Of a stretch of DNA of 51,533 bases, positions 4,478 to 47,873 are shown one piece after another (within the stretch, counting starts at the first letter, position 1; each line of letters begins with the position of its first letter). The position numbers and the translations under genes were made by a program. The DNA lies in IMG/VR virus record IMGVR_UViG_2711768018_000019; one strand, 5' to 3'. The notes beneath the pieces are model-generated. The model had not been told where the DNA came from. It saw only the letters and a list, made by a program, of their open reading frames with translations, and ran no database searches. This DNA is from a virus. Taxonomy: Duplodnaviria > Heunggongvirae > Uroviricota > Caudoviricetes.

Positions 4478-5152
4478 TTAGGCCTTTATTATGTATCTTC
4501 TTGGTTTTCCTGAGAAAATCACTGTACCAATTATAGAGCAATTACCGTTAATCTTAATGTAAGGCTCAGGCCAGTTTGGGTTTAATGCTTTGAGATAACG
4601 CTGTGTTCCATCTTCTATCAACCGCTTGAAGGTGGTTTCGCCTGTATCGTGCATCAATGCAATAACGTCGTCACCGTGGCAGGCAGGGACTTCAGGATCA
4701 ACAAAAATCATGTCTCCCGGGCGGTACTCATCAATCATTGAATCACCAATCACCCGCAAGATATAAGTCATTTCGCCACAGGGTACAGGGCAGGGATAAG
4801 TTTCTGCTGTGCTCAAATCAACCTCAGAATAGCCAACTTCTTTCCATGCTCCGGCCTGTACCCATGATATGACAGGGACTAACGTTATTTGTTTGTTAGT
4901 GATTGAAACGTCAGGTTTTTTTGTGATGTTCGTTGTCTGGTGTTCTTGATCAAGCCATCCGACAGGCAGGTCGAAACATTTTTCGATGTGCCGTGCCATG
5001 CTGTCACCGATATTTTTAGTTGCACCATCTCCCATAAACCTGCTGGTCTGGGTTGGCTCGCGATCAATCATGGTGGCAAAGGAAGAATTCCCGCCAACAC
5101 CATCTCTCAGTTTTCTGGCGTTAGACCGCCGGATGTCATGGACTGTTTTCAT
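4478..5152 (-). CDS. cI: CI-type prophage repressor (HTH plus S24 LexA-like peptidase domain)
   Basis: 224 aa. N-terminal HTH region and a C-terminal S24 signature with Ser in GDSM (VIGDSMIDEYRPGDMIFVD) and a downstream Lys (TTFKRL). Divergent from the Cro-like gene across an operator region. Confidence 0.8.
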   Translation of the reverse strand: MKTVHDIRRSNARKLRDGVGGNSSFATMIDREPTQTSRFMGDGATKNIGDSMARHIEKCFDLPVGWLDQEHQTTNITKKPDVSITNKQITLVPVISWVQAGAWKEVGYSEVDLSTAETYPCPVPCGEMTYILRVIGDSMIDEYRPGDMIFVDPEVPACHGDDVIALMHDTGETTFKRLIEDGTQRYLKALNPNWPEPYIKINGNCSIIGTVIFSGKPRRYIIKA

Positions 5153-5242
5153 AAAGAAATTAAAACCTTTGTACCGATAAGGTACAAGTATCTTGAAGGT
5201 TCATCTCAATCATGTAATATGTATACCGGAGGTACATATTGT
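5153..5242. promoter_or_regulatory. OR region: operators with divergent pRM/pR promoters
   Basis: Perfect palindrome TTGTACCgataaGGTACAA at 5169-5187; second imperfect site GTATACCggaGGTACAT at 5221-5237. pR candidate: -35 TTGAAG (5193-5198), 16-nt spacer, -10 TAATAT (5215-5220), upstream of the Cro-like ATG at 5243. Confidence 0.55.
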
Positions 5243-5443
5243 ATGAAAGCGTATTGGGACTCTTTAACCAAAGAACAGCAGGGTGAGTTGGCCGGAAAAG
5301 TTGGCTCAACACCAGGCTACTTACGGCTGGTTTTCAATGGTTATAAAAAAGCCAGTTTTGTGCTGGCTAAAAAACTTGAGCAATGCACGTCAGGTGCAAT
5401 TACGAAATCTGACTTAAGACCGGATATCTATCCGAAAGATTAA
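5243..5443 (+). CDS. cro: Cro-like (YdaS-family) HTH regulator
   Basis: 66-aa ORF (MKAYWDSLTKEQQGELAGKVGSTPGYLRLV...SDLRPDIYPKD) with RBS ggagg. The HTH and C-terminal DLRPD motif are typical of YdaS/Cro-family proteins. Not in the ORF track because the 4940..5443 frame shadows it. Confidence 0.6.
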   Translation: MKAYWDSLTKEQQGELAGKVGSTPGYLRLVFNGYKKASFVLAKKLEQCTSGAITKSDLRPDIYPKD

Positions 5444-5474
5444 CAGAACACCTTCAATTTTTAACCACAGAACG

Positions 5475-6038
5475 ATGAGGCTAACCGTGGGTAAGCATCA
5501 CTGGAAAGTAGAAAAACAGCCTGAGTGGTACGTGAAAGCTGTCAGAAAAACTATCGCGGCGTTGCCGGGGGGTTACGCTGAAGCTGCTGAGTGGCTGGAT
5601 GTAACAGAGAACGCTTTATTCAACCGCCTTCGTGCAGATGGCGATCAGATTTTCCCGCTGGGATGGGCAATGATTTTACAGCGCGCGGCTGGCACTCACT
5701 ACATTGCGGATGCTGTCGCACAGTCTGCTGGTGGGGTGTTTGTATCGCTTCCTGAAATTGAGGAAGTAGAGAACGCCGATATAAACCAGCGCCTGCTGGA
5801 AGTCATCGAACAGATCGGGAGTTACTCAAAGCAGATTCGTTCGGCAATCGAAGATGGGGTAGTGGAGCCACACGAGCAGACAGCAATTAATGATGAGTTG
5901 TATCTGTCAATTTCGAAGCTCCAGGAGCATGCAGCACTGGTCTACAAAATCTTTTGCGCTCCAGAAAAGAGTGACGCCCGCGAGTGTGCAGCTCCGGGCG
6001 TCGTGGCGTTTTGTGTCTGTGGAGAAACTAACGCATGA
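5475..6038 (+). CDS. YdaT/CII-like early regulatory protein
   Basis: 187-aa ORF immediately after the Cro-like gene, which is the conserved YdaS-YdaT arrangement. Assignment rests on position and general resemblance only. Confidence 0.4.
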   Translation: MRLTVGKHHWKVEKQPEWYVKAVRKTIAALPGGYAEAAEWLDVTENALFNRLRADGDQIFPLGWAMILQRAAGTHYIADAVAQSAGGVFVSLPEIEEVENADINQRLLEVIEQIGSYSKQIRSAIEDGVVEPHEQTAINDELYLSISKLQEHAALVYKIFCAPEKSDARECAAPGVVAFCVCGETNA

Positions 6039-6871
6039 ACAGTTTAACGGCAAATAACCGTTTGTCGCAACAGCTGGTGGTCAGCGTCGCTGAACACCTG
6101 TTGTTACGGCATGAATGCAGATTACCAAATCACCTGGCTGTAAGTAACCACAGAGAACTTTACCTGACTGTGGGGGGCGAGTTGTGCAGGAACTTAACCG
6201 CTGGTTTCGTGACGGAAGAGGACTTTATGTTCATGTTATTCGTTGGGAGCCAGAAACACAGCGCGTTATCTATCTTCGCAAAGACTACCCGCATGAGTGC
6301 TTTAGTCCTTTGTGGAAATTCAGGCGTGATTTTGTTGAGTGTGAAGGACCACCAGCACATTGATTCTGCCATTCCGGGACGTTACACTGTTCAGGCACCT
6401 TATAAAGCGGGTGCCGGGATTGGCGTCCTGGAATTGATCAAGGCGATATATGACGCGCCAGCGTCTTTTTTATCGTCCGCATTTGCTCACATCAAAGTTA
6501 TGGTGGGCTGGGCGGGGGCATCGAAAGATGCGCCGGTTTCCTTGATCACCGGTTACGCCAACCCCGTTCAGTTCACCACCAGCGAAATTGGCGTTTCCGG
6601 TGGTGGAAGTATTTCACCGATCAAGGAGGCTGCCATCATGGCTACTGTCCCAGCCCTCACTCGTCTGAATGATGAAGACTTACATAAACTCAGTTATGTA
6701 ACAACTGCACTACGTGCTCTGCGCAAGGTAACTCTTTCGGATCCGCAGGCACATCAGGTTCTGGTAGAAACCCTTCTTAACTTGCAAGCTGAACGTATTC
6801 GTCTGGCGGATAAGGCTAATTTTCATATTCACCGTCTCCTGAATATCAGCGGAGGGCATCGTCATGCTTAA
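6035..6871 (+). CDS. Hypothetical protein; ORF may be composite or contain a frameshift
   Basis: 278-aa open frame. A GTG-initiated alternative frame (about 6186-6365, with GGGGGG RBS) encodes a more protein-like peptide, and an internal ATG at 6638 has a strong AAGGAGG RBS. Confidence 0.3.
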   Translation: MNSLTANNRLSQQLVVSVAEHLLLRHECRLPNHLAVSNHRELYLTVGGELCRNLTAGFVTEEDFMFMLFVGSQKHSALSIFAKTTRMSALVLCGNSGVILLSVKDHQHIDSAIPGRYTVQAPYKAGAGIGVLELIKAIYDAPASFLSSAFAHIKVMVGWAGASKDAPVSLITGYANPVQFTTSEIGVSGGGSISPIKEAAIMATVPALTRLNDEDLHKLSYVTTALRALRKVTLSDPQAHQVLVETLLNLQAERIRLADKANFHIHRLLNISGGHRHA

Positions 6872-7100
6872 TCCGTTGATCCTCAATATTTGCCGTTTGC
6901 TTCAGCGTAAAAAAATATCAATTCCTACAGTTGGGCAGTGGTACACCACGCCTGCAGGGCATGTTCTACGTGTTAGCCTGGTTGACCGTGAATGCCAGAA
7001 GGTGATTTGTGAACCGCTGGGCCGTAATTACCGCGTCAGTATGCCGCTTATAGCCTTTCGCTCCGGAAAAAACATGAAGCATCTCGGAGGTGCAGCATGA
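6864..7100 (+). CDS. Small hypothetical protein (78 aa)
   Basis: ORF overlapping the stop of the preceding ORF and the start of the following gene, as in tightly packed phage operons. Confidence 0.3.
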   Translation: MLNPLILNICRLLQRKKISIPTVGQWYTTPAGHVLRVSLVDRECQKVICEPLGRNYRVSMPLIAFRSGKNMKHLGGAA

Positions 7101-7915
7101 GTATGGAGCTGATGGTTAAAGCGATGAAAATTCGAGTGGGTAATCCATTGCGAAAACTGGTTCTGATCAAGCTGGCTGATAATGCCAGCGATCAGGGTGA
7201 GTGCTGGCCCAGCTACCAGCATATTGCTGACCAGTGCGAAATTAGCAAACGTTCTGTGATGAATCATATTGCGGCCCTTTGTGAGTCCGGGCTGGTAAAA
7301 AAAGTCACCCGGAAAGGTGAAAAAGGTAACTCAAGTAATATCTATCTCCTTCATCTGGATGGTGCAGGAGATTCACTAGGGGGTAGTGCAAATAATTCAC
7401 TATCTGGTGCAGCAAATTCACCAGGTAGTGCAGGAGTTGCACCAGGGGGTAGTGCAGGAGATTCACCCAGAACCAGTCACTCTTTTGAACCAGTCAAAGA
7501 ACCAGTCAATGAACCAATAGCTGTTGGTGCATCAGTTGATGAGTCCGTGCGAGTTCGTTCAAACCGACCGGAATACTCTCCGGAGTTTGAGCAGGCATGG
7601 CTGGCATATCCCAAACGTGCTGGTGGCAATTCAAAATCTGCAGCCTTCAAAGCCTGGAAAGCCCGTTTGAATGAGGGAGTAAACCCCGAAACCATGCTGG
7701 AAGGTGTGAAACGCTACGCGGGATGGGTATCTGCGATGGGTAACAGCGGCACACAATTTGTGAAACAGGCTGTCACGTTCTTTGGTCCGGATCGTCATTT
7801 CGAAGAATTCTGGGAAGTTCCTGCGGTATCTGCAGCCAGACGCGAGGACCCGTACTTCAAAGCCAGTTACGACAACGTGGACTACAGCCAGATCCCGGCA
7901 GGATTCAGGGGGTGA
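7097..7915 (+). CDS. Replication initiation protein (HTH_36 / O-like replisome organiser)
   Basis: 272 aa with RBS ggagg. N-terminal winged-helix region, a low-complexity linker encoded by iteron-like DNA repeats, and a conserved C-terminal region. Sits in the lambda O position. Confidence 0.55.
   Translation: MSMELMVKAMKIRVGNPLRKLVLIKLADNASDQGECWPSYQHIADQCEISKRSVMNHIAALCESGLVKKVTRKGEKGNSSNIYLLHLDGAGDSLGGSANNSLSGAANSPGSAGVAPGGSAGDSPRTSHSFEPVKEPVNEPIAVGASVDESVRVRSNRPEYSPEFEQAWLAYPKRAGGNSKSAAFKAWKARLNEGVNPETMLEGVKRYAGWVSAMGNSGTQFVKQAVTFFGPDRHFEEFWEVPAVSAARREDPYFKASYDNVDYSQIPAGFRG
7360..7520. repeat. Iteron-like direct repeats inside the replication gene (candidate origin)
   Basis: Repeated units ggtgcaggagattcac (7361-7376 and 7452-7467), ggtagtgca(gga) several times, and three copies of gaaccagtca at 7470-7510. 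Confidence 0.45.
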
Positions 7916-7917
7916 TC

Positions 7918-8406
7918 ATGAGTCTTTTGAATGAAGTTCAGAAATTCATTGAAGCCCATCCGGGGTGTACTTCCGGAGACATTGCGGATGCTTTTGCAGG
8001 TTACTCACGGCAGCGCGTTCTGCAGTCAGCAAGCAAGTTACGTCAGAGTGGGCGTGTGGCTCACCGTTATGAAGGAGATACACGCAGACATTTCCCACGC
8101 CTGACTGAGAGAGCGCAGGAGCCGGAACCACAACCAGTTCGTGAAACCAGACCTGTGCGCAATTTCTATGTCGGCACTAACGATCCCCGGGTGATTTTGT
8201 GCCTGACCCGCCAGGCGGAAGAACTGGAGTCCAGGGGCTTATACCGTCGTGCTGCAACGGTGTGGATGGCGGCATTCCGTGAAAGCCACTCCCAGCCAGA
8301 ACGAAACAATTTTCTGGCGCGTCGTGAGCGGTGCTTACGGAAAAGCAGCAAGCGCGCTGCATCGGGTGAAGAGTGGTATCTGTCAGGGAATTACGTGGGG
8401 GCTTAA
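7918..8406 (+). CDS. Hypothetical protein with PerC/ANR-like C-terminal motif
   Basis: ATG at 7918 with RBS cagggggtgatc. The C-terminal segment LYRRAATVWMAAF resembles the PerC/ANR small-regulator family as I recall it. Confidence 0.35.
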   Translation: MSLLNEVQKFIEAHPGCTSGDIADAFAGYSRQRVLQSASKLRQSGRVAHRYEGDTRRHFPRLTERAQEPEPQPVRETRPVRNFYVGTNDPRVILCLTRQAEELESRGLYRRAATVWMAAFRESHSQPERNNFLARRERCLRKSSKRAASGEEWYLSGNYVGA

Positions 8407-9059
8407 TGAGTAATAAATATTGCCAGGCGCTGGTGGAGCTGCGGAACAAACCAGCCCATGAACTGAAGGAAGTGGGCGATCAGTGGCGCACGCCGGATAA
8501 CATTTTCTGGGGAATTAACACCCTGTTTGGCCCGTTTGTTCTGGATCTGTTCACTGATGGTGATAACGCCAAATGTGCCGCTTATTACACTGCGGAAGAC
8601 AACGCGCTGGCGCATGACTGGTCTGAACGTCTTGCGGAGCTTAAAGGTGCTGCCTTTGGTAATCCCCCGTACAGCCGCGCCAGTCAGCATGAAGGGCAAT
8701 ACATCACCGGCATGCGTTACATCATGAAACATGCCAGTGCCATGCGTGATAAGGGCGGACGCTATGTTTTCCTGATCAAAGCTGCCACCAGCGAAGTGTG
8801 GTGGCCGGAAGATGCAGATCATATTGCTTTTATTCGCGGGCGTATTGGTTTTGAACTGCCTGCCTGGTTTATCCCGAAGGACGAGAAGCAGGTGCCGACA
8901 GGCGCTTTCTTCGCTGGTGCTATTGCTGTTTTCGACAAGACCTGGAAGGGACCGGCAATCAGCTACATCGGGCGCGATGAACTTGAGGCATGTGGTGAGG
9001 CGTTTCTGGCGCAGGTTCGCCAGCAGGCGGAAAAACTGGTCAGGGAGATGGCGGCATGA
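8406..9059 (+). CDS. Phage Dam-family N6-adenine DNA methyltransferase
   Basis: 217 aa. Catalytic NPPY motif (AFGNPPYSR) and overall similarity to the phage N-6-adenine-methyltransferase family. Start overlaps the upstream stop (TAATG). Confidence 0.7.
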   Translation: MSNKYCQALVELRNKPAHELKEVGDQWRTPDNIFWGINTLFGPFVLDLFTDGDNAKCAAYYTAEDNALAHDWSERLAELKGAAFGNPPYSRASQHEGQYITGMRYIMKHASAMRDKGGRYVFLIKAATSEVWWPEDADHIAFIRGRIGFELPAWFIPKDEKQVPTGAFFAGAIAVFDKTWKGPAISYIGRDELEACGEAFLAQVRQQAEKLVREMAA

Positions 9060-9382
9060 CGACGTTAACTCAATGCCAGCAGCAGGTGCTGGATATGCTG
9101 ATTTCTTACCAGAAAGAACGTGGCTTCCCGCCAACCAATCAGGAGGTGGCAACCATGCTGGGATACCGTTCAGTGAATGCAGCGGTGGAACATCTTCGCG
9201 CACTGGAGAAAAAAGGCGTCATCACGATAAAGCGTGGCATGGCCCGGGGTATCACTCTTCATACCGCGGTGAAGGACGACGACAGCGAGGCGGTCGGGAT
9301 TATCCGCTCACTGCTTGCCGGTGAGGAAAACGCCAGGCTGCGTGCAACCCACTGGTTACATGAGAGAGGCCTGAAAGTATGA
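9056..9382 (+). CDS. LexA DNA-binding-domain-only protein
   Basis: 108-aa ORF (LTQCQQQVLDMLISYQKERGFPPTNQEVATMLGYRSVNAAVEHLRALEKKGVITI) closely parallels the LexA N-terminal winged helix. No S24 peptidase domain follows. Confidence 0.6.
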   Translation: MTTLTQCQQQVLDMLISYQKERGFPPTNQEVATMLGYRSVNAAVEHLRALEKKGVITIKRGMARGITLHTAVKDDDSEAVGIIRSLLAGEENARLRATHWLHERGLKV

Positions 9383-9768
9383 AGCTGATCCTGCCTTTCC
9401 CGCCCAGCGTGAACACGTACTGGCGACACCCCAACAAAGGGGCATTTGCTGGTAAGAGCCTGATAAGCGCGGCGGGGCGAAAATTTCAGAGCGCGGCGTG
9501 CGCAGCAATAGTTGAGCAGTTACGTCGTCTGCCAAAACCAACGTCGGCACCTGCTTCAGTGGAGATCGTGTTGTTTCCTCCGGATAACCGGATCCGCGAT
9601 CTGGACAACTATAACAAGGCGCTGTTTGACGCCCTGACCCACGCGGGGGTGTGGGAAGACGACAGCCAGGTGAAAAGAATGCTGGTGGAGTGGGGACCGG
9701 TTATCCAGAAAGGGAAGGTCGAGATCACTATCAGTAAGTATGAGAAACCGGCGGGTGCAGCCGCCTGA
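9379..9768 (+). CDS. rusA: RusA Holliday-junction resolvase
   Basis: 129 aa; PFPPSVNTYWRH ... RDLDNYNKALFDALTHAGVWEDDSQV matches RusA family catalytic motifs. Confidence 0.8.
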   Translation: MKLILPFPPSVNTYWRHPNKGAFAGKSLISAAGRKFQSAACAAIVEQLRRLPKPTSAPASVEIVLFPPDNRIRDLDNYNKALFDALTHAGVWEDDSQVKRMLVEWGPVIQKGKVEITISKYEKPAGAAA

Positions 9769-9787
9769 TCAAGAGGAGAAACGAAGT

Positions 9788-10597
9788 ATGAATAATCTGA
9801 TGGTCATTGATGGTATTGAAGTTCGTCGTGATGCTTATGGGCGTTACAGCCTGAACGATCTGCACAGGGCAGCCGGGGGAGAACAAAAAAACCGCCCGAA
9901 ATACTGGCTCTCCAATAAGCAAACCTGTGAATTGATTGAACAACTTTTCACCGAGGGTGGAATTCCGCCTCTGGAACAAAATCAACCAGTTAGCGTCATT
10001 AATGGCGGAAATAACCAGGGGACGTATGTCTGCAAAGAACTGGTGTATGCCTATGCAATGTGGATCAGCCCGTCATTCCATCTGAAGGTGATCCGTACTT
10101 TCGACATGGTAACCAGCGCACCGGAAAAATTATCCGGACAGGCTGCTGACAAGATGCAGGCTGGCGTGATCCTGCTGGACTTTATGCGCCGGGAATTAAA
10201 TCTGTCTAACTCATCAGTGCTTGGAGCCTGTCAGAAGCTTCAGGAGGCTGTTGGCTTACCGAATCTGGCACCGCGCTATGCCATTGATGCTCCTGCTGAC
10301 GCGCCTGATGGCTCAAGTCGCCCCACGCTGTCGCTGAGTGCACTGCTGAAGCAGTATGGTATCCGCCTGACGGCTAATCAGGCATATCACCAGATGGTGA
10401 AGCTGGGGATCGTTGAACAACGCGAACGATACAGCCGTACCGCGATTAACAACATCAAAAAATTCTGGTCGCTGACGGCGAAAGGCTGCATGTTCGGCAA
10501 GAACATCACCAGTCCTGCAAATCCGCGCGAGACGCAGCCGCATTTCTTCGAATCCCGATTCCCTGAGCTGTTAAAGCTGCTCGATACCGTTCATTGA
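9788..10597 (+). CDS. KilA-N domain protein
   Basis: ATG at 9788 with RBS agaggag. The N-terminal region (IDGIEVRRDAYGRYSLNDLHRAAGGEQKNRPKYWLSNKQTCELIEQL) follows the KilA-N pattern. Confidence 0.55.
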   Translation: MNNLMVIDGIEVRRDAYGRYSLNDLHRAAGGEQKNRPKYWLSNKQTCELIEQLFTEGGIPPLEQNQPVSVINGGNNQGTYVCKELVYAYAMWISPSFHLKVIRTFDMVTSAPEKLSGQAADKMQAGVILLDFMRRELNLSNSSVLGACQKLQEAVGLPNLAPRYAIDAPADAPDGSSRPTLSLSALLKQYGIRLTANQAYHQMVKLGIVEQRERYSRTAINNIKKFWSLTAKGCMFGKNITSPANPRETQPHFFESRFPELLKLLDTVH

Positions 10598-10598
10598 G

Positions 10599-11594
10599 GT
10601 GACCGTGAGAGCACTACTGACCCCTGAAATTGCCCCGCGTATGGGGATCGTATTGTTCAGGCCAGGTTCAGAGCTGATGCCCCTGTTTATGCAGGGGCGT
10701 GTTCTGCTGGAGCCTGAGCCGGAACGTTATTCATCTTTCGCCAGTGGTGCCGTTCCGGCGGCATCACAACCGCTGGCGGATGATCCTGCCGTTCGGGCCG
10801 TGTTCCGCAATGAGGCAGTGATCCGTCGTGCTGGTGGCGTGGAATGTCTTGAAAGCTGGTTACTTCGTGAAAAAGGCTGCCAGTGGCCTCATTCCGACTG
10901 GCACAGCGAGAACATGACCACAATGCGACACGCTCCGGGCGCAATCCGTCTGTGCTGGCACTGCGATAACCAGCTGCGCGATCAGTTCACGGAACGGCTG
11001 GAATCAATGGCAACGGATAACTGTGCCCGCTGGGTGTTGTCTGTTGTGCGTCGGGATCTCGGTTTTGATGATAGTCACGTTGTGACAATGCCGGAACTGT
11101 GCTGGTGGCTGATTCGTAATGACCTGGCGGATGCCTTACCGGAAAGTGCAGCCCGTAAGGCACTGAGATTACCAAAGCCTGTTGTGCCGTCTGTCACCCG
11201 GGAAAGTGACCTTGTGCCTTCGGTTCCTGCCACCAGCATCATCCAGGATAAGGCAAAAAAGGTGCTGGCGCTGAAAGTGGATCCGGAGTCGCCGGAGTCT
11301 TTTATGTTACGCCCAAAACGCCGCCGCTGGGTTAATGAAAAGTACACGCGCTGGGTTAAGACACAGCCGTGTGCATGTTGTGGAAAGCCTGCTGATGATC
11401 CCCACCACCTGATAGGCCACGGTCAGGGTGGAATGGGTACAAAAGCGCATGACCTCTTTGTGTTGCCTTTGTGCAGAAAGCATCACGACGAGCTGCATGC
11501 GGATACCGTGGCATTTGAAGAGAAGTATGGCTCCCAGCTGGAGCTGATATTTCGTTTTATCGATCGTGCGCTGGCAATTGGCGTATTGGCGTAA
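10599..11594 (+). CDS. DUF968 (YdfU-like) nin-region protein with C-terminal HNH-like zinc motif
   Basis: 331 aa; C-terminal CACCGKPADDPHHLIGHGQGG ... CRKHHDELH. Position before Q matches YdfU in Qin-type prophages. Start codon uncertain (GTG per ORF track). Confidence 0.5.
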   Translation: MTVRALLTPEIAPRMGIVLFRPGSELMPLFMQGRVLLEPEPERYSSFASGAVPAASQPLADDPAVRAVFRNEAVIRRAGGVECLESWLLREKGCQWPHSDWHSENMTTMRHAPGAIRLCWHCDNQLRDQFTERLESMATDNCARWVLSVVRRDLGFDDSHVVTMPELCWWLIRNDLADALPESAARKALRLPKPVVPSVTRESDLVPSVPATSIIQDKAKKVLALKVDPESPESFMLRPKRRRWVNEKYTRWVKTQPCACCGKPADDPHHLIGHGQGGMGTKAHDLFVLPLCRKHHDELHADTVAFEEKYGSQLELIFRFIDRALAIGVLA

Positions 11595-46502: not shown

Positions 46503-47873
46503 CTATGATATCCCTGAAATGTCCTCTTCAAGCTCTTTTACTGATTTCGCAATTTTAAATTTAAATTTTCTCTCTATTTCACTATTGCTAAGTTTTTTTT
46601 CATTCTCTTTCCCTATCCACATAGAAACAATTTCTCGTTTCTGAGATATATGTAGATTGTCAAAGTTAGGTATGTATTTAAAAGTCTCCGCTCTACCCCT
46701 GCGGAGTTCATAGAAAGTTTTAATCAAAGACTTTGGTTTTATTTCTGATGAAAGGCCGAATCGGCGGATAAGATTATTGATCGTATGATTAACAGCTCGA
46801 AGTTGAGCTGTTGACGTTATTTGTGAGAAGTACGATACCCATCCCAATCGTTTACCTTCAAACACACATCCCGTAATTCTAAGATTTAGTTTCCACTGAC
46901 AATATGCAACAGCTCGTTCTTTATCGCGCTTATTTTTAGCTTGTAGTAGAGCGTGTCTATATGCAGTAAAAATTTTTGCTAAGGATGACTCAAATCTAAG
47001 AATGCTCTCATGTTTTATCAATAATTCTCGATTTTTTATGTGGTAGCCCAAAAAGTTGAAACTTTCATCCAAGCTGCCTACTTTGGATTTTGAGTTCTCT
47101 TCATTTAATGGATGTGGGTTTAAATTTAATGATTGAAGCTTATCAATGATATGAGAAGCTATTTTTGTTGCTTGATATTTTGGTGTTAAAATAAGAATGT
47201 CATCAACGTATCGCATGTACCATATGTCATGCATTTTATTGATTTCATCATCGAAATTAGATAGTGATATTTCAGCTAAAATGTTTGATATCGCTAATCC
47301 CTGAGGTACTCCTCTGGTATTATTAGGGATACCTTTGCTTCCTGTGGTTCCACTTACAGTAGGCACGATTAATGATGATGTTATTAACTGTCTAATTTCT
47401 TTTTTTCTAATTTTATTTTTTATTGCATTAATTATCAATTTATGTTCAATTGAAGGATAGAAACTTTTAAGATCTATTTTTGCATATTCAGCATATAGAC
47501 TGTTGTTTAATGCTTCTTTCAATGAGTCAATTACTGTATGTGGTAGTTTTAATCTGGACTTAGGATATATTTCCGTAAGGCATTCACAGAGAGCTCTAAG
47601 AGTAATTCTGTCCCTAGCAGTTGGTATGGAAATCTGTCTGGGTGTAGAGTTAGCGCCTTTAGATATTAATTTTTCTTTATATGCTGTAAATTTGTAATTG
47701 CCAGAATTAACCTTTTCAAAAATGAAAGTGATCTCATTTTTTATTGTCAAATCAAGTTTTGATGGGCGAATCCGATCTATGCCAATCGCTCCTGATTCTT
47801 TGATTTTTTCAGAGTATACTTTTAGAAGATTTTTTTTCGAGAATGACTTTTTAAAAATTCTGCTTGCAGTCAT
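46503..47873 (-). CDS. Reverse transcriptase (defence-associated, retron/UG/Abi-like; unclassified)
   Basis: 456 aa from the ATG at 47873..47871. RT motifs: RQISIPTARDRI (motif 1), AKIDLKSFYPSI (motif 2), RGVPQGLAISNILAEI (QG motif), YMRYVDDILIL (YxDD active site), FLGYHI (thumb). AT-rich; start overlaps the upstream gene's 3' end. Confidence 0.8.
   Translation of the reverse strand: MTASRIFKKSFSKKNLLKVYSEKIKESGAIGIDRIRPSKLDLTIKNEITFIFEKVNSGNYKFTAYKEKLISKGANSTPRQISIPTARDRITLRALCECLTEIYPKSRLKLPHTVIDSLKEALNNSLYAEYAKIDLKSFYPSIEHKLIINAIKNKIRKKEIRQLITSSLIVPTVSGTTGSKGIPNNTRGVPQGLAISNILAEISLSNFDDEINKMHDIWYMRYVDDILILTPKYQATKIASHIIDKLQSLNLNPHPLNEENSKSKVGSLDESFNFLGYHIKNRELLIKHESILRFESSLAKIFTAYRHALLQAKNKRDKERAVAYCQWKLNLRITGCVFEGKRLGWVSYFSQITSTAQLRAVNHTINNLIRRFGLSSEIKPKSLIKTFYELRRGRAETFKYIPNFDNLHISQKREIVSMWIGKENEKKLSNSEIERKFKFKIAKSVKELEEDISGIS

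Follow-up and report, generated by a model that had tools for sequence, protein, structure and literature searches.

The Rep proteins of the plasmids RK2, P1, F, R6K and pPS10 use a winged helix to bind in-phase iterons that lie beside an unwinding element of tandem 13-mers. On these plasmids it is usually a Rep monomer that binds the iteron, the iterons are located outside the rep gene, and DnaA boxes are common in such origins. In phages lambda, P27 and 933W the origin lies in gene O; P27 and 933W have six iterons, and extra iterons lengthen the protein (PMC7466680). The oriL of the Bacillus phage SPP1 is embedded in gene 38, which encodes G38P, and has AB-box iterons with an adjacent DNA unwinding element (PMC5737612). 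Here we analysed a 51,533-nucleotide stretch of DNA from a Caudoviricetes virus (IMG/VR record IMGVR_UViG_2711768018_000019; 'the window' below means this whole stretch), in which the gene for a winged-helix replication initiator carries five tandem dyad-symmetric repeats and, next to them, a constant element built of GAACC-containing units. The repeats are probably a theta-type replication origin of the prophage, placed inside the linker-coding part of the initiator gene, with the iterons serving as initiator sites. An original prediction, made from the letters of the window alone, had proposed a prophage origin within this gene, and the proposal gained support from our comparison of reading frames, dyads, recognition helices and conservation. 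The arrangement is of a known kind in an uncharacterised initiator family. The separate nucleotide element of about 30 bases, which is conserved across reading frames and hosts, is an added finding and looks new.

The putative origin resembles those of lambda, P27 and 933W in its mid-gene position, in tandem dyad iterons that would be bound by the N-terminal domain of the initiator and, for the family mean, in an adjacent low-GC region. As far as can be predicted here, both combine the N-terminal domain with the iterons in a single specificity module and leave recruitment of the helicase system to the C-terminal domain, and the variation in iteron number between those phages, which alters protein length (PMC7466680), is paralleled by alleles of the window gene. 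In contrast to lambda, the window protein is HTH_36/DnaD-N-like and no P gene follows; moreover, its origin flank is a conserved GAACC-repeat element, common to phages of many iteron specificities and helicase partners, whereas the lambda flank is a plain AT-rich tract. With SPP1 oriL the locus shares an initiator of the non-AAA+ replisome-organizer type (the window protein gives a weak DnaD_N match) and an origin in the initiator's own gene. However, G38P belongs to pfam09524 (PMC5737612), SPP1 has a Gram-positive host, and no constant cross-phage element is reported for G38P. The tandem 12-nt GAACC units beside the iterons also recall the layout of the iteron plasmids, but the window iterons are intragenic, no DnaA boxes are nearby and the GAACC units are not AT-rich 13-mers.

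The repeat region, 7360-7520, falls within the open reading frame (ORF) of the initiator gene (Table 1). We found five copies of GTGCANNNNNTKCAC on the plus strand, one per iteron (starts 7362, 7386, 7407, 7428 and 7452), and none elsewhere in the 51.5 kb; the chance expectation was 0.27, and none of 100 shuffles reached the observed count. Every 15-bp unit is a near-palindrome of the dyad-symmetric form GTGCA-N5-T(T/G)CAC, and the units occupy 7362-7466 at spacings of 24, 21, 21 and 24 bp. An iteron-type theta origin has at least three tandem repeats of about 15-22 bp in helical phase, and five such units are present here. Beyond them, GAACCAGTCA occurs in three exact copies (starts 7470, 7487 and 7499; span 7470-7508), compared with 0.02 expected from shuffles. 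As the first two copies are spaced 17 nt, they lie in different frames, read aGA-ACC-AGT-CAc (R-T-S-H) and then GAA-CCA-GTC-A (E-P-V), and the peptide encoded by 7469-7508 is RTSHSFEPVKEPV. The number of extra GAACC units differs among strains. Tandem-repeat analysis had been named as a check on the prediction, and Tandem Repeats Finder detected periods of 21, 24 and 12 at the locus. The repeats had thus been correctly placed within a helix-turn-helix replication gene, with the five iterons and three GAACCAGTCA copies far above shuffle expectation. Among the units listed in the prediction, 'ggtagtgca' indeed recurs (three occurrences), as do the three copies of GAACCAGTCA; the 16-mer ggtgcaggagattcac, said to occur twice, is not exactly repeated at full length but is exact twice as the 15-mer GTGCAGGAGATTCAC. 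The GAACCAGTCA units, which had been taken as further iterons, instead form part of the constant element.

Table 1. Positions in the window of the initiator gene, its encoded domains and the repeat elements (pLDDT, predicted local distance difference test)
Feature	Position	Strand	Remarks
Replication initiator gene	7097-7915	+	272 aa; ORF, Pfam HTH_36, PHROG 270
N-terminal winged-helix DNA-binding domain (aa 1-87)	7097-7357	+	AlphaFold2 block-mean pLDDT 64-89
AT-richer flank left of iterons	7290-7360		38-40% GC
Iteron 1	7362-7376		GTGCAGGAGATTCAC
Predicted disordered linker (aa 91-157)	7367-7567	+	pLDDT <50; holds iterons and constant element
Iteron 2	7386-7400		GTGCAAATAATTCAC
Iteron 3	7407-7421		GTGCAGCAAATTCAC
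Iteron 4	7428-7442		GTGCAGGAGTTGCAC; arms perfectly palindromic; matches both strands
Iteron 5	7452-7466		GTGCAGGAGATTCAC; dyad centre 10 nt ahead of constant element
Constant element AGAACCAGTCACTCTTTTGAACCAGTCA	7469-7496		two GAACCAGTCA units, 17 nt apart, two frames
Extra GAACC units, 12-nt spacing	7499-7520		GAACCAGTCA at 7499-7508; degenerate fourth unit GAACCAATAG at 7511-7520
Helical C-terminal domain (aa 162-214)	7580-7738	+	PHROG 1701, PHROG 9327; AlphaFold2 helices

Two further features of the window's repeats are recorded here. The only other tandem repeat in the window is a short, AT-rich one at 47391-47421, with two copies of period 15-16. An alternative-frame ORF of 44 aa, MQIIHYLVQQIHQVVQELHQGVVQEIHPEPVTLLNQSKNQSMNQ (7386-7520, plus strand), crosses iterons 2-5 and the whole constant element before it meets a stop at 7520; its frame is the one that some relatives use for part of the linker, and the ORF is probably a by-product of the repeats.

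Homologues were collected in three sets. The first comprised relatives found by blastn (L001-L009), and the second 120 loci from viral contigs scanned for the GAACC motif. The third took one genome per species with two peptide patterns confined to the N-terminal domain (L130-L209), and matters because it was picked without bias towards repeats. A stricter viral-contig probe, four GAACC units at exact 12-nt spacing, was dropped as not specific, since the initiator N-terminal domain was in frame at only 1 of 120 loci. Absent or unconserved repeats in homologues had been named as one observation that would speak against an origin. We found instead that all homologues share one layout after the N-terminal domain, with two to seven detected tandem dyad units followed by the GAACC element, and that the repeats stand at the same place with 21-24 bp spacing in homologues from E. 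coli, Vibrio, Pseudomonas, Shewanella and Stenotrophomonas.

Such repeats might be a mere low-complexity peptide linker, expanded through replication slippage and without a role at the DNA level. The region does encode a disordered linker rich in Gly, Ser, Ala and Pro, and E. coli prophage alleles (P0041, P0042, P0028, P0001, P0024) carry 1, 2, 5, 7, 8 or 9 iterons and 2-4 EPV units, as slippage-prone repeats would give. However, perfect 5-nt dyads averaged 6.46 per linker in 141 distinct genes compared with 1.30, about one-fifth, after synonymous codons were resampled with the peptide preserved; the count lay above all 100 resamplings in 76 of these genes, and the window gene has 5 dyads compared with 0.7. 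Unit spacings of 21, 22, 23 and 24 bp, that is, about two helical turns, were found in 105, 48, 33 and 122 cases, and 81 of the 308 were not multiples of three. Copies lay in two to three frames within a single gene in 58 of the 141, and also differed in frame between genes. For instance, GTGCAGGAGATTCAC is translated SAGDSP in the window and VVQEIHQ in relatives, so it is the linker peptide that follows the DNA. This bears out the suggestion that the repeats explain the GGSA-rich linker of the window protein. In a P. aeruginosa-type subfamily, with an N-terminal domain about 45% identical, consecutive copies read PAAFAP, PQKVHP and RRKCTP and thereby use all three frames. Prophages of this type (L335-L414) carry up to about eight iterons of the form CCCGCAGnnnnTGCACC, and other half-sites within the subfamily are CCGGCA...TGCCG and CCGAAC...TTCACC. 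A logo of 171 iterons, gathered by probe similarity from 40 genes with the window's recognition helix, gave T(A/G)GTGCA...T(T/G)CAC(C/T), with arms invariant or nearly so and with centre and spacers free to vary, while the encoded linker peptides of different phages are unrelated (GSAGDSP, PVPPKST, PSDKMSP and others). Together, the dyad excess, the non-codon spacing, the multiple frames and the invariant arms rule out a pure peptide repeat, and we consider slippage without DNA function very improbable; a dimeric winged-helix protein on inverted half-sites one turn apart would fit all four observations. As judged from these comparisons, the iterons and the constant element are under selection at the nucleotide level, not at the peptide level.

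The constant element became apparent from phages that share little else with the window gene. By blastn, Vibrio D62-type and Stenotrophomonas phages match only gene bases 367-416 or 371-407, at 90-97% identity, and the matched stretch is AGAACCAGTCACTCTTTTGAACCAGTCA. Among 73 readable genes selected by their N-terminal domain, 67 carry this sequence with at most 6 mismatches in 28 positions, 13 of them exactly; the hosts include Pseudomonas, Enterobacter, Marinomonas, Shewanella, Aeromonas, Xenorhabdus, Providencia, Proteus, Erwinia, Cardiobacteriaceae and Microbulbifer. Codons within the element are monomorphic (Arg AGA 62/62, Ser AGT 63/63, Ser TCT 62/62, His CAC 53/53, Glu GAA 63/63, Val GTC 58/60). 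In the same sample, invariant residues of the N-terminal domain use all synonymous codons: one Arg is CGC in 32 genes, CGT in 16, AGA in 10, CGA in 6 and CGG and AGG in 4 each, and one Ser uses all six codons. The amino acids of the element, in turn, vary (Thr 37/65, Phe 28/65; F to S, L or P, and T to I). Furthermore, three Shewanella genes have a 2-nt deletion inside the element, so that their last iteron and the element's first half are translated in another frame (LVNLLHPEPVTLEPVNES), with the DNA kept. The P. aeruginosa-type subfamily has its own conserved element variant, AGAACCGTAATAGAACCaTCAAGtGAACCgTCA, read either RTVIEPSSEPS or QNRKGTIKEPS, and homologues from Massilia (a betaproteobacterium) and Piscirickettsia have similar (A/G)AACC runs with a 12-nt period. 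Peptide-level conservation of RTSHSFEPV was ruled out by the codon table and by the frame changes in Shewanella and the P. aeruginosa-type genes. The distance from the dyad centre of the last iteron to the element is 10 nt in 87 of the 141 genes and mostly 22 nt in the rest, the latter as would be expected if the last imperfect unit had gone undetected.

The element also coincides with a mosaic joint. By blastn, similarity is confined to gene bases 1-407 in some phages and to bases 425-720 in others, and in the hybrids P0066, P0069 and P0072 a foreign N-terminal domain with its iterons is joined at the element to a C-terminal domain nearly identical to that of the window gene. Depending on the phage, the element is followed by one of at least eight unrelated C-terminal domains, and the partner helicase genes of relatives differ, being gp4-like primase-helicase, DnaB-like, P-like or none adjacent. 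The 'O' protein of an Stx1a phage (L008) joins an unrelated N-terminus to a C-terminal domain of the window type. Sequence comparison thus indicates that the C-terminal module is exchanged independently of the N-terminal one. One could argue from the exact position of the joint, the hybrids and the many C-terminal domains that the GAACC element persists as a common crossover site, a 'linker' in the sense of modular evolution at which the two modules are exchanged, and not as a working part of the origin. We give this little weight. Recombination exploits identity and does not maintain it, and because the element codons are monomorphic across Enterobacterales, Pseudomonas, Vibrio, Shewanella, Aeromonas and Stenotrophomonas, purifying selection would be needed in each lineage. 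The distant P. aeruginosa-type subfamily keeps a variant of its own, and the fixed 10-nt register with the last iteron indicates a joint function of element and iterons. As to individual alleles, P0041 (on 3 contigs) is without the last iteron and the entire constant element, and P0036 has part of the wing missing.

Frame-independent conservation would also suit a signal that acts in mRNA, such as a structure, a regulatory RNA target, or a pause or frameshift site. A -1 shift at CAC TCT TTT GAA would reach a TGA stop, and in two genes, L146 (Pseudomonas bharatica) and L171 (Erwinia tracheiphila), the N-terminal domain frame crosses the element in the 'wrong' register and stops at its end (about 330-375 nt), the C-terminal domain continuing in the normal frame. 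We rejected programmed frameshifting for these two, as L146 has lost 1 nt in an inter-iteron G run and the frame of L171 is broken in a comparable way ahead of the element; pseudogenization, errors in sequencing or naturally truncated forms could account for them. Codon-level readings in general (a rare-codon pause or a frameshift site) fail, since the element is read in different frames. The single-strand DNA fold of 7355-7525 was no better than that of shuffles (z = -0.51), Rfam gave no credible match, its one hit scoring 22 bits against a gathering score of 84, and the arms of the unit pair by a C-U mismatch, not by wobble. A role in mRNA is hardly credible on this evidence. A terminator-like hairpin with a T run lies on the minus strand at 7305-7320, within the wing-coding region; such sites are no more numerous than chance would give.

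The origin reading also agrees with what could be predicted of the initiator protein. Pfam HTH_36 matches aa 17-67 (44.1 bits, cutoff 25, E 1.8e-11) and DnaD_N gives a weak sub-threshold match (24.3 bits, cutoff 27). PHROG 270, 'replication initiation protein', matches aa 3-271 at 2.4e-88; the N-terminal half also matches a separate PHROG family, 'replication initiation O-like', and the C-terminal half PHROG 1701, 'DnaD-like helicase loader' (8.8e-33), and PHROG 9327, 'primosomal protein'. These matches assign the protein to the HTH_36/DnaD-N-like phage replication initiators (PHROG 270), with a C-terminal domain that is presumed to be a helicase or primosome recruitment module. Phage_rep_O was absent from the Pfam matches (E <= 0.01), which were HTH_36, DnaD_N, B-block_TFIIIC and HTH_20 only. 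By this absence and that of a downstream P-type loader gene, the initiator lies outside the lambda O family; the lambda parallel is therefore one of mechanism. The original prediction of a lambda-like origin holds in that sense, iterons inside the initiator gene, but not for the protein family. An AlphaFold2 model made from a shallow alignment had low overall confidence (mean pLDDT 58.9), and for this reason we draw no conclusion on the C-terminal fold. In the N-terminal domain it has helices at 3-11, 17-28, 40-47 and 51-63, the last being the recognition helix, and strands at 67-73 and 79-85; the low pLDDT of the segment that follows indicates that the repeats encode a disordered linker. Foldseek hits to the N-terminal domain were winged-helix proteins only, including DnaD-N (2v79) and a Rep-DNA complex (5kbj), all of them weak (E > 0.008), and a PDB sequence search found no relative of the initiator.

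We then compared the iterons with the recognition helix encoded beside them. The iteron unit differs among phages: GTGCA-N5-TTCAC in the window, GGGGCAGGAGCTGCCCC in phi24B, TGTGCCGCCAGAAAGCACA in S107, GTGACAAAATGTCAC in Vibrio D62, TATGCC...GCATA in a Stenotrophomonas phage and GTAGGC...GCCTAC at other loci of the viral-contig scan. Half-sites went with helices, GTGCA or GTGAA with xSKRSVMNH, (A/G)TGCC with CSK(S/T)AVRxH, GTAGGC with IDRSTVRxH, GGGGCA with (I/V)(G/S)RSTVKxH and GTGTA with MSR(K/T)TAIxH. In two separate lineages (ISKRSVMRH and CDKRTAMRH) Arg replaces Asn before the conserved His, and both have GTGAC-type half-sites, not GTGCA; the genes are from Erwinia tracheiphila (L167, L171), Izhakiella (L184) and Vibrio phage D62 (L006). 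The Asn-to-Arg change is a candidate single-residue specificity switch. These pairings are consistent evidence that the half-site tracks the recognition helix and that the iterons are specific to the adjacent winged-helix domain.

Base composition was examined in the family and in the window. In the unbiased sample, the mean 30-nt GC minimum within 400 nt on either side fell on the constant element, at 0.37-0.40 compared with 0.53 overall, and in high-GC hosts an overall GC of 0.59 stood against the minimum on the element. A secondary GC dip occurs family-wide at -145 to -100 from the element. Several points weigh against the locus being an origin with the element as its opening site. In the window the element has no more than a moderate AT content (43% GC at 7470-7529), and GC is lowest in the gene on the left side of the iterons, at 7320-7379 (38%), so the unwinding site could be on either side of them; the dip in high-GC hosts would also follow from the constancy of the element. 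Neither a DnaA box (TTWTNCACA) nor an integration host factor (IHF) consensus (WATCAANNNNTTR) is nearby, the nearest matches being far from the locus, and no host factor can be named because of this. The selection of the logo copies by probe similarity inflates their apparent conservation. The correlation of helix and half-site is confounded because the two are physically linked, about 100 bp apart, and linkage alone would yield much of the co-variation. Finally, we infer binding, unwinding and autonomous replication in this initiator family from sequence. DnaA boxes and IHF sites are common in plasmid origins and are not required for phage origins.

The dyad repeats could instead be operators, used for autoregulation, copy control or exclusion of related phages, with the true origin elsewhere. 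Winged-helix dimers on palindromes are typical of operators, plasmid iterons serve copy control too, and the window has no strongly AT-rich tract beside the repeats. We nevertheless regard operators with an origin elsewhere as unlikely. The window has no comparable repeat cluster elsewhere, and the array is placed as the lambda and SPP1 origins are, a position that P22-type origins share. Moreover, it is always in a fixed register with a conserved nucleotide element, and five in-phase intragenic sites would be odd for a promoter operator, no sigma-70-like promoter site having been found in 6800-8000. Operator and origin roles are not mutually exclusive and can coexist.

For the origin that we favour, the following mechanism may be proposed. 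Dimers of the N-terminal winged-helix domain would bind the five iterons, T(A/G)GTGCA-N5-T(T/G)CAC. Because the half-sites are about one turn apart and the units about two, the bound dimers would stand on one face of the DNA, and they could form an O-some-like complex, as in lambda. The duplex would then open and receive the helicase at the adjoining constant element or, with less likelihood, in the left flank (7290-7360). That the constant element is the unwinding or helicase-loading site is a tentative assignment; alternatively, it could be a binding site for a conserved host factor or for the initiator, in single- or double-stranded form. Candidate readers of the GAACC units are a conserved host factor and the initiator acting on single-stranded DNA, and both lambda O and the Rep proteins of plasmids are reported to bind single-stranded DNA. 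Recruitment of the helicase would fall to the exchangeable C-terminal domain, with host DnaB/DnaC used in the window phage and helicases of the phage itself in relatives. In the ORF list and a Pfam scan, neither a P gene nor a DnaC-like or DnaB-like gene adjoins the initiator gene, and host DnaB/DnaC would therefore be needed by the window phage. A rather doubtful extension is that the element is a portable 'universal origin core', read by a conserved host replication component or by an invariant part of the initiator. If so, any module of N-terminal domain and iterons could work with any helicase-recruiting C-terminal domain, in hosts from Enterobacterales to Pseudomonas, Vibrio, Shewanella, Stenotrophomonas and Massilia (Betaproteobacteria), and such a requirement would explain both the constancy of the element across frames and its role as a point of module exchange.

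The initiator gene occupies the O position of a lambdoid early-right operon, past the cI, cII and Ash genes. Its 5' neighbours are an S24-peptidase cI-like repressor gene on the opposite strand, a CII-family gene, an Ash-family gene (Pfam Ash domain, 6035-6871) and a small gene without known function; on its 3' side are PerC-like, Dam, LexA-like and RusA genes. By blastn, it is 99.1% identical to its counterpart in Stx2c-converting (Shiga toxin 2c-converting) phages, with lower values for phage Ayreon (98.9%), Salmonella phage ST64B (88.6%) and an Aeromonas phage (76%). The match to Stx2a_WGPS2 (AP012537) is full-length at 98.3%. An Eru6-type region has an HTH protein gene and a Rha/Ash-family gene at the positions beside cI, and the initiator gene of the window and the Ash-family gene 5' of it may correspond to these. 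Stx2a_WGPS2 is the reference phage of the Eru6 replication type, and the paper that defines the Eru types gives gene content only, without mention of an origin or of iterons; of the proteins with which Eru phages replicate, it states that nothing is known (PMC8951638). Judged by the initiator gene and its surroundings (4478-11594), the window resembles a lambdoid prophage of the Stx2c-converting or Eru6 type. At a coverage of at least 80%, 897 of 5426 complete E. coli genomes had the initiator gene. Many other matches in E. coli genomes, including K-12 type O16:H48, cover only the last 76 nt of the gene and the start of the PerC-family gene yfdN (hits H83-H88). We take this partial match to be yfdO of the CPS-53 prophage remnant, and it looks like a further mosaic joint at the 3' end of the initiator gene.

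A plasmid search for a minimal replicon returned few full-length or nearly full-length matches, and since these were in phage-sized circles of about 40-45 kb, large plasmids or mislabelled chromosomes, it gave no functional proof. Many circular 'plasmids' of phage size, from bacteria of insects and fish, carry an initiator homologue together with iterons and GAACC-like units, namely records of Arsenophonus nasoniae (H57-H66; 28-104 kb, mostly about 40 kb) and of Piscirickettsia salmonis (H70-H72). If these circles are phage-plasmids maintained by the initiator homologue, they would be natural evidence for origin function. A literature search, with most subscription journals outside reach, found no description of this origin, the constant element or the iterons of the family; the motif, searched as DNA or peptide, returned nothing relevant, and matches to the DNA string were in unrelated eukaryotic papers.

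The initiator gene is present in roughly one in six complete E. coli genomes, and Shiga-toxin phages are among the carriers; in lambdoid Stx phages, toxin production is linked to phage replication in published work. For the non-lambdoid Eru-type class, five iterons and a constant element would make a concrete origin map, and the pairing of helix residues with half-sites offers a recognition code. The locus is also a clear example of DNA signals that override protein coding in a disordered linker. As a sequence tag, the constant element could help to find this origin type in phage genomes of Gammaproteobacteria and some Betaproteobacteria, and, if it binds a conserved host factor, it would mark a host dependency shared by many temperate phages.

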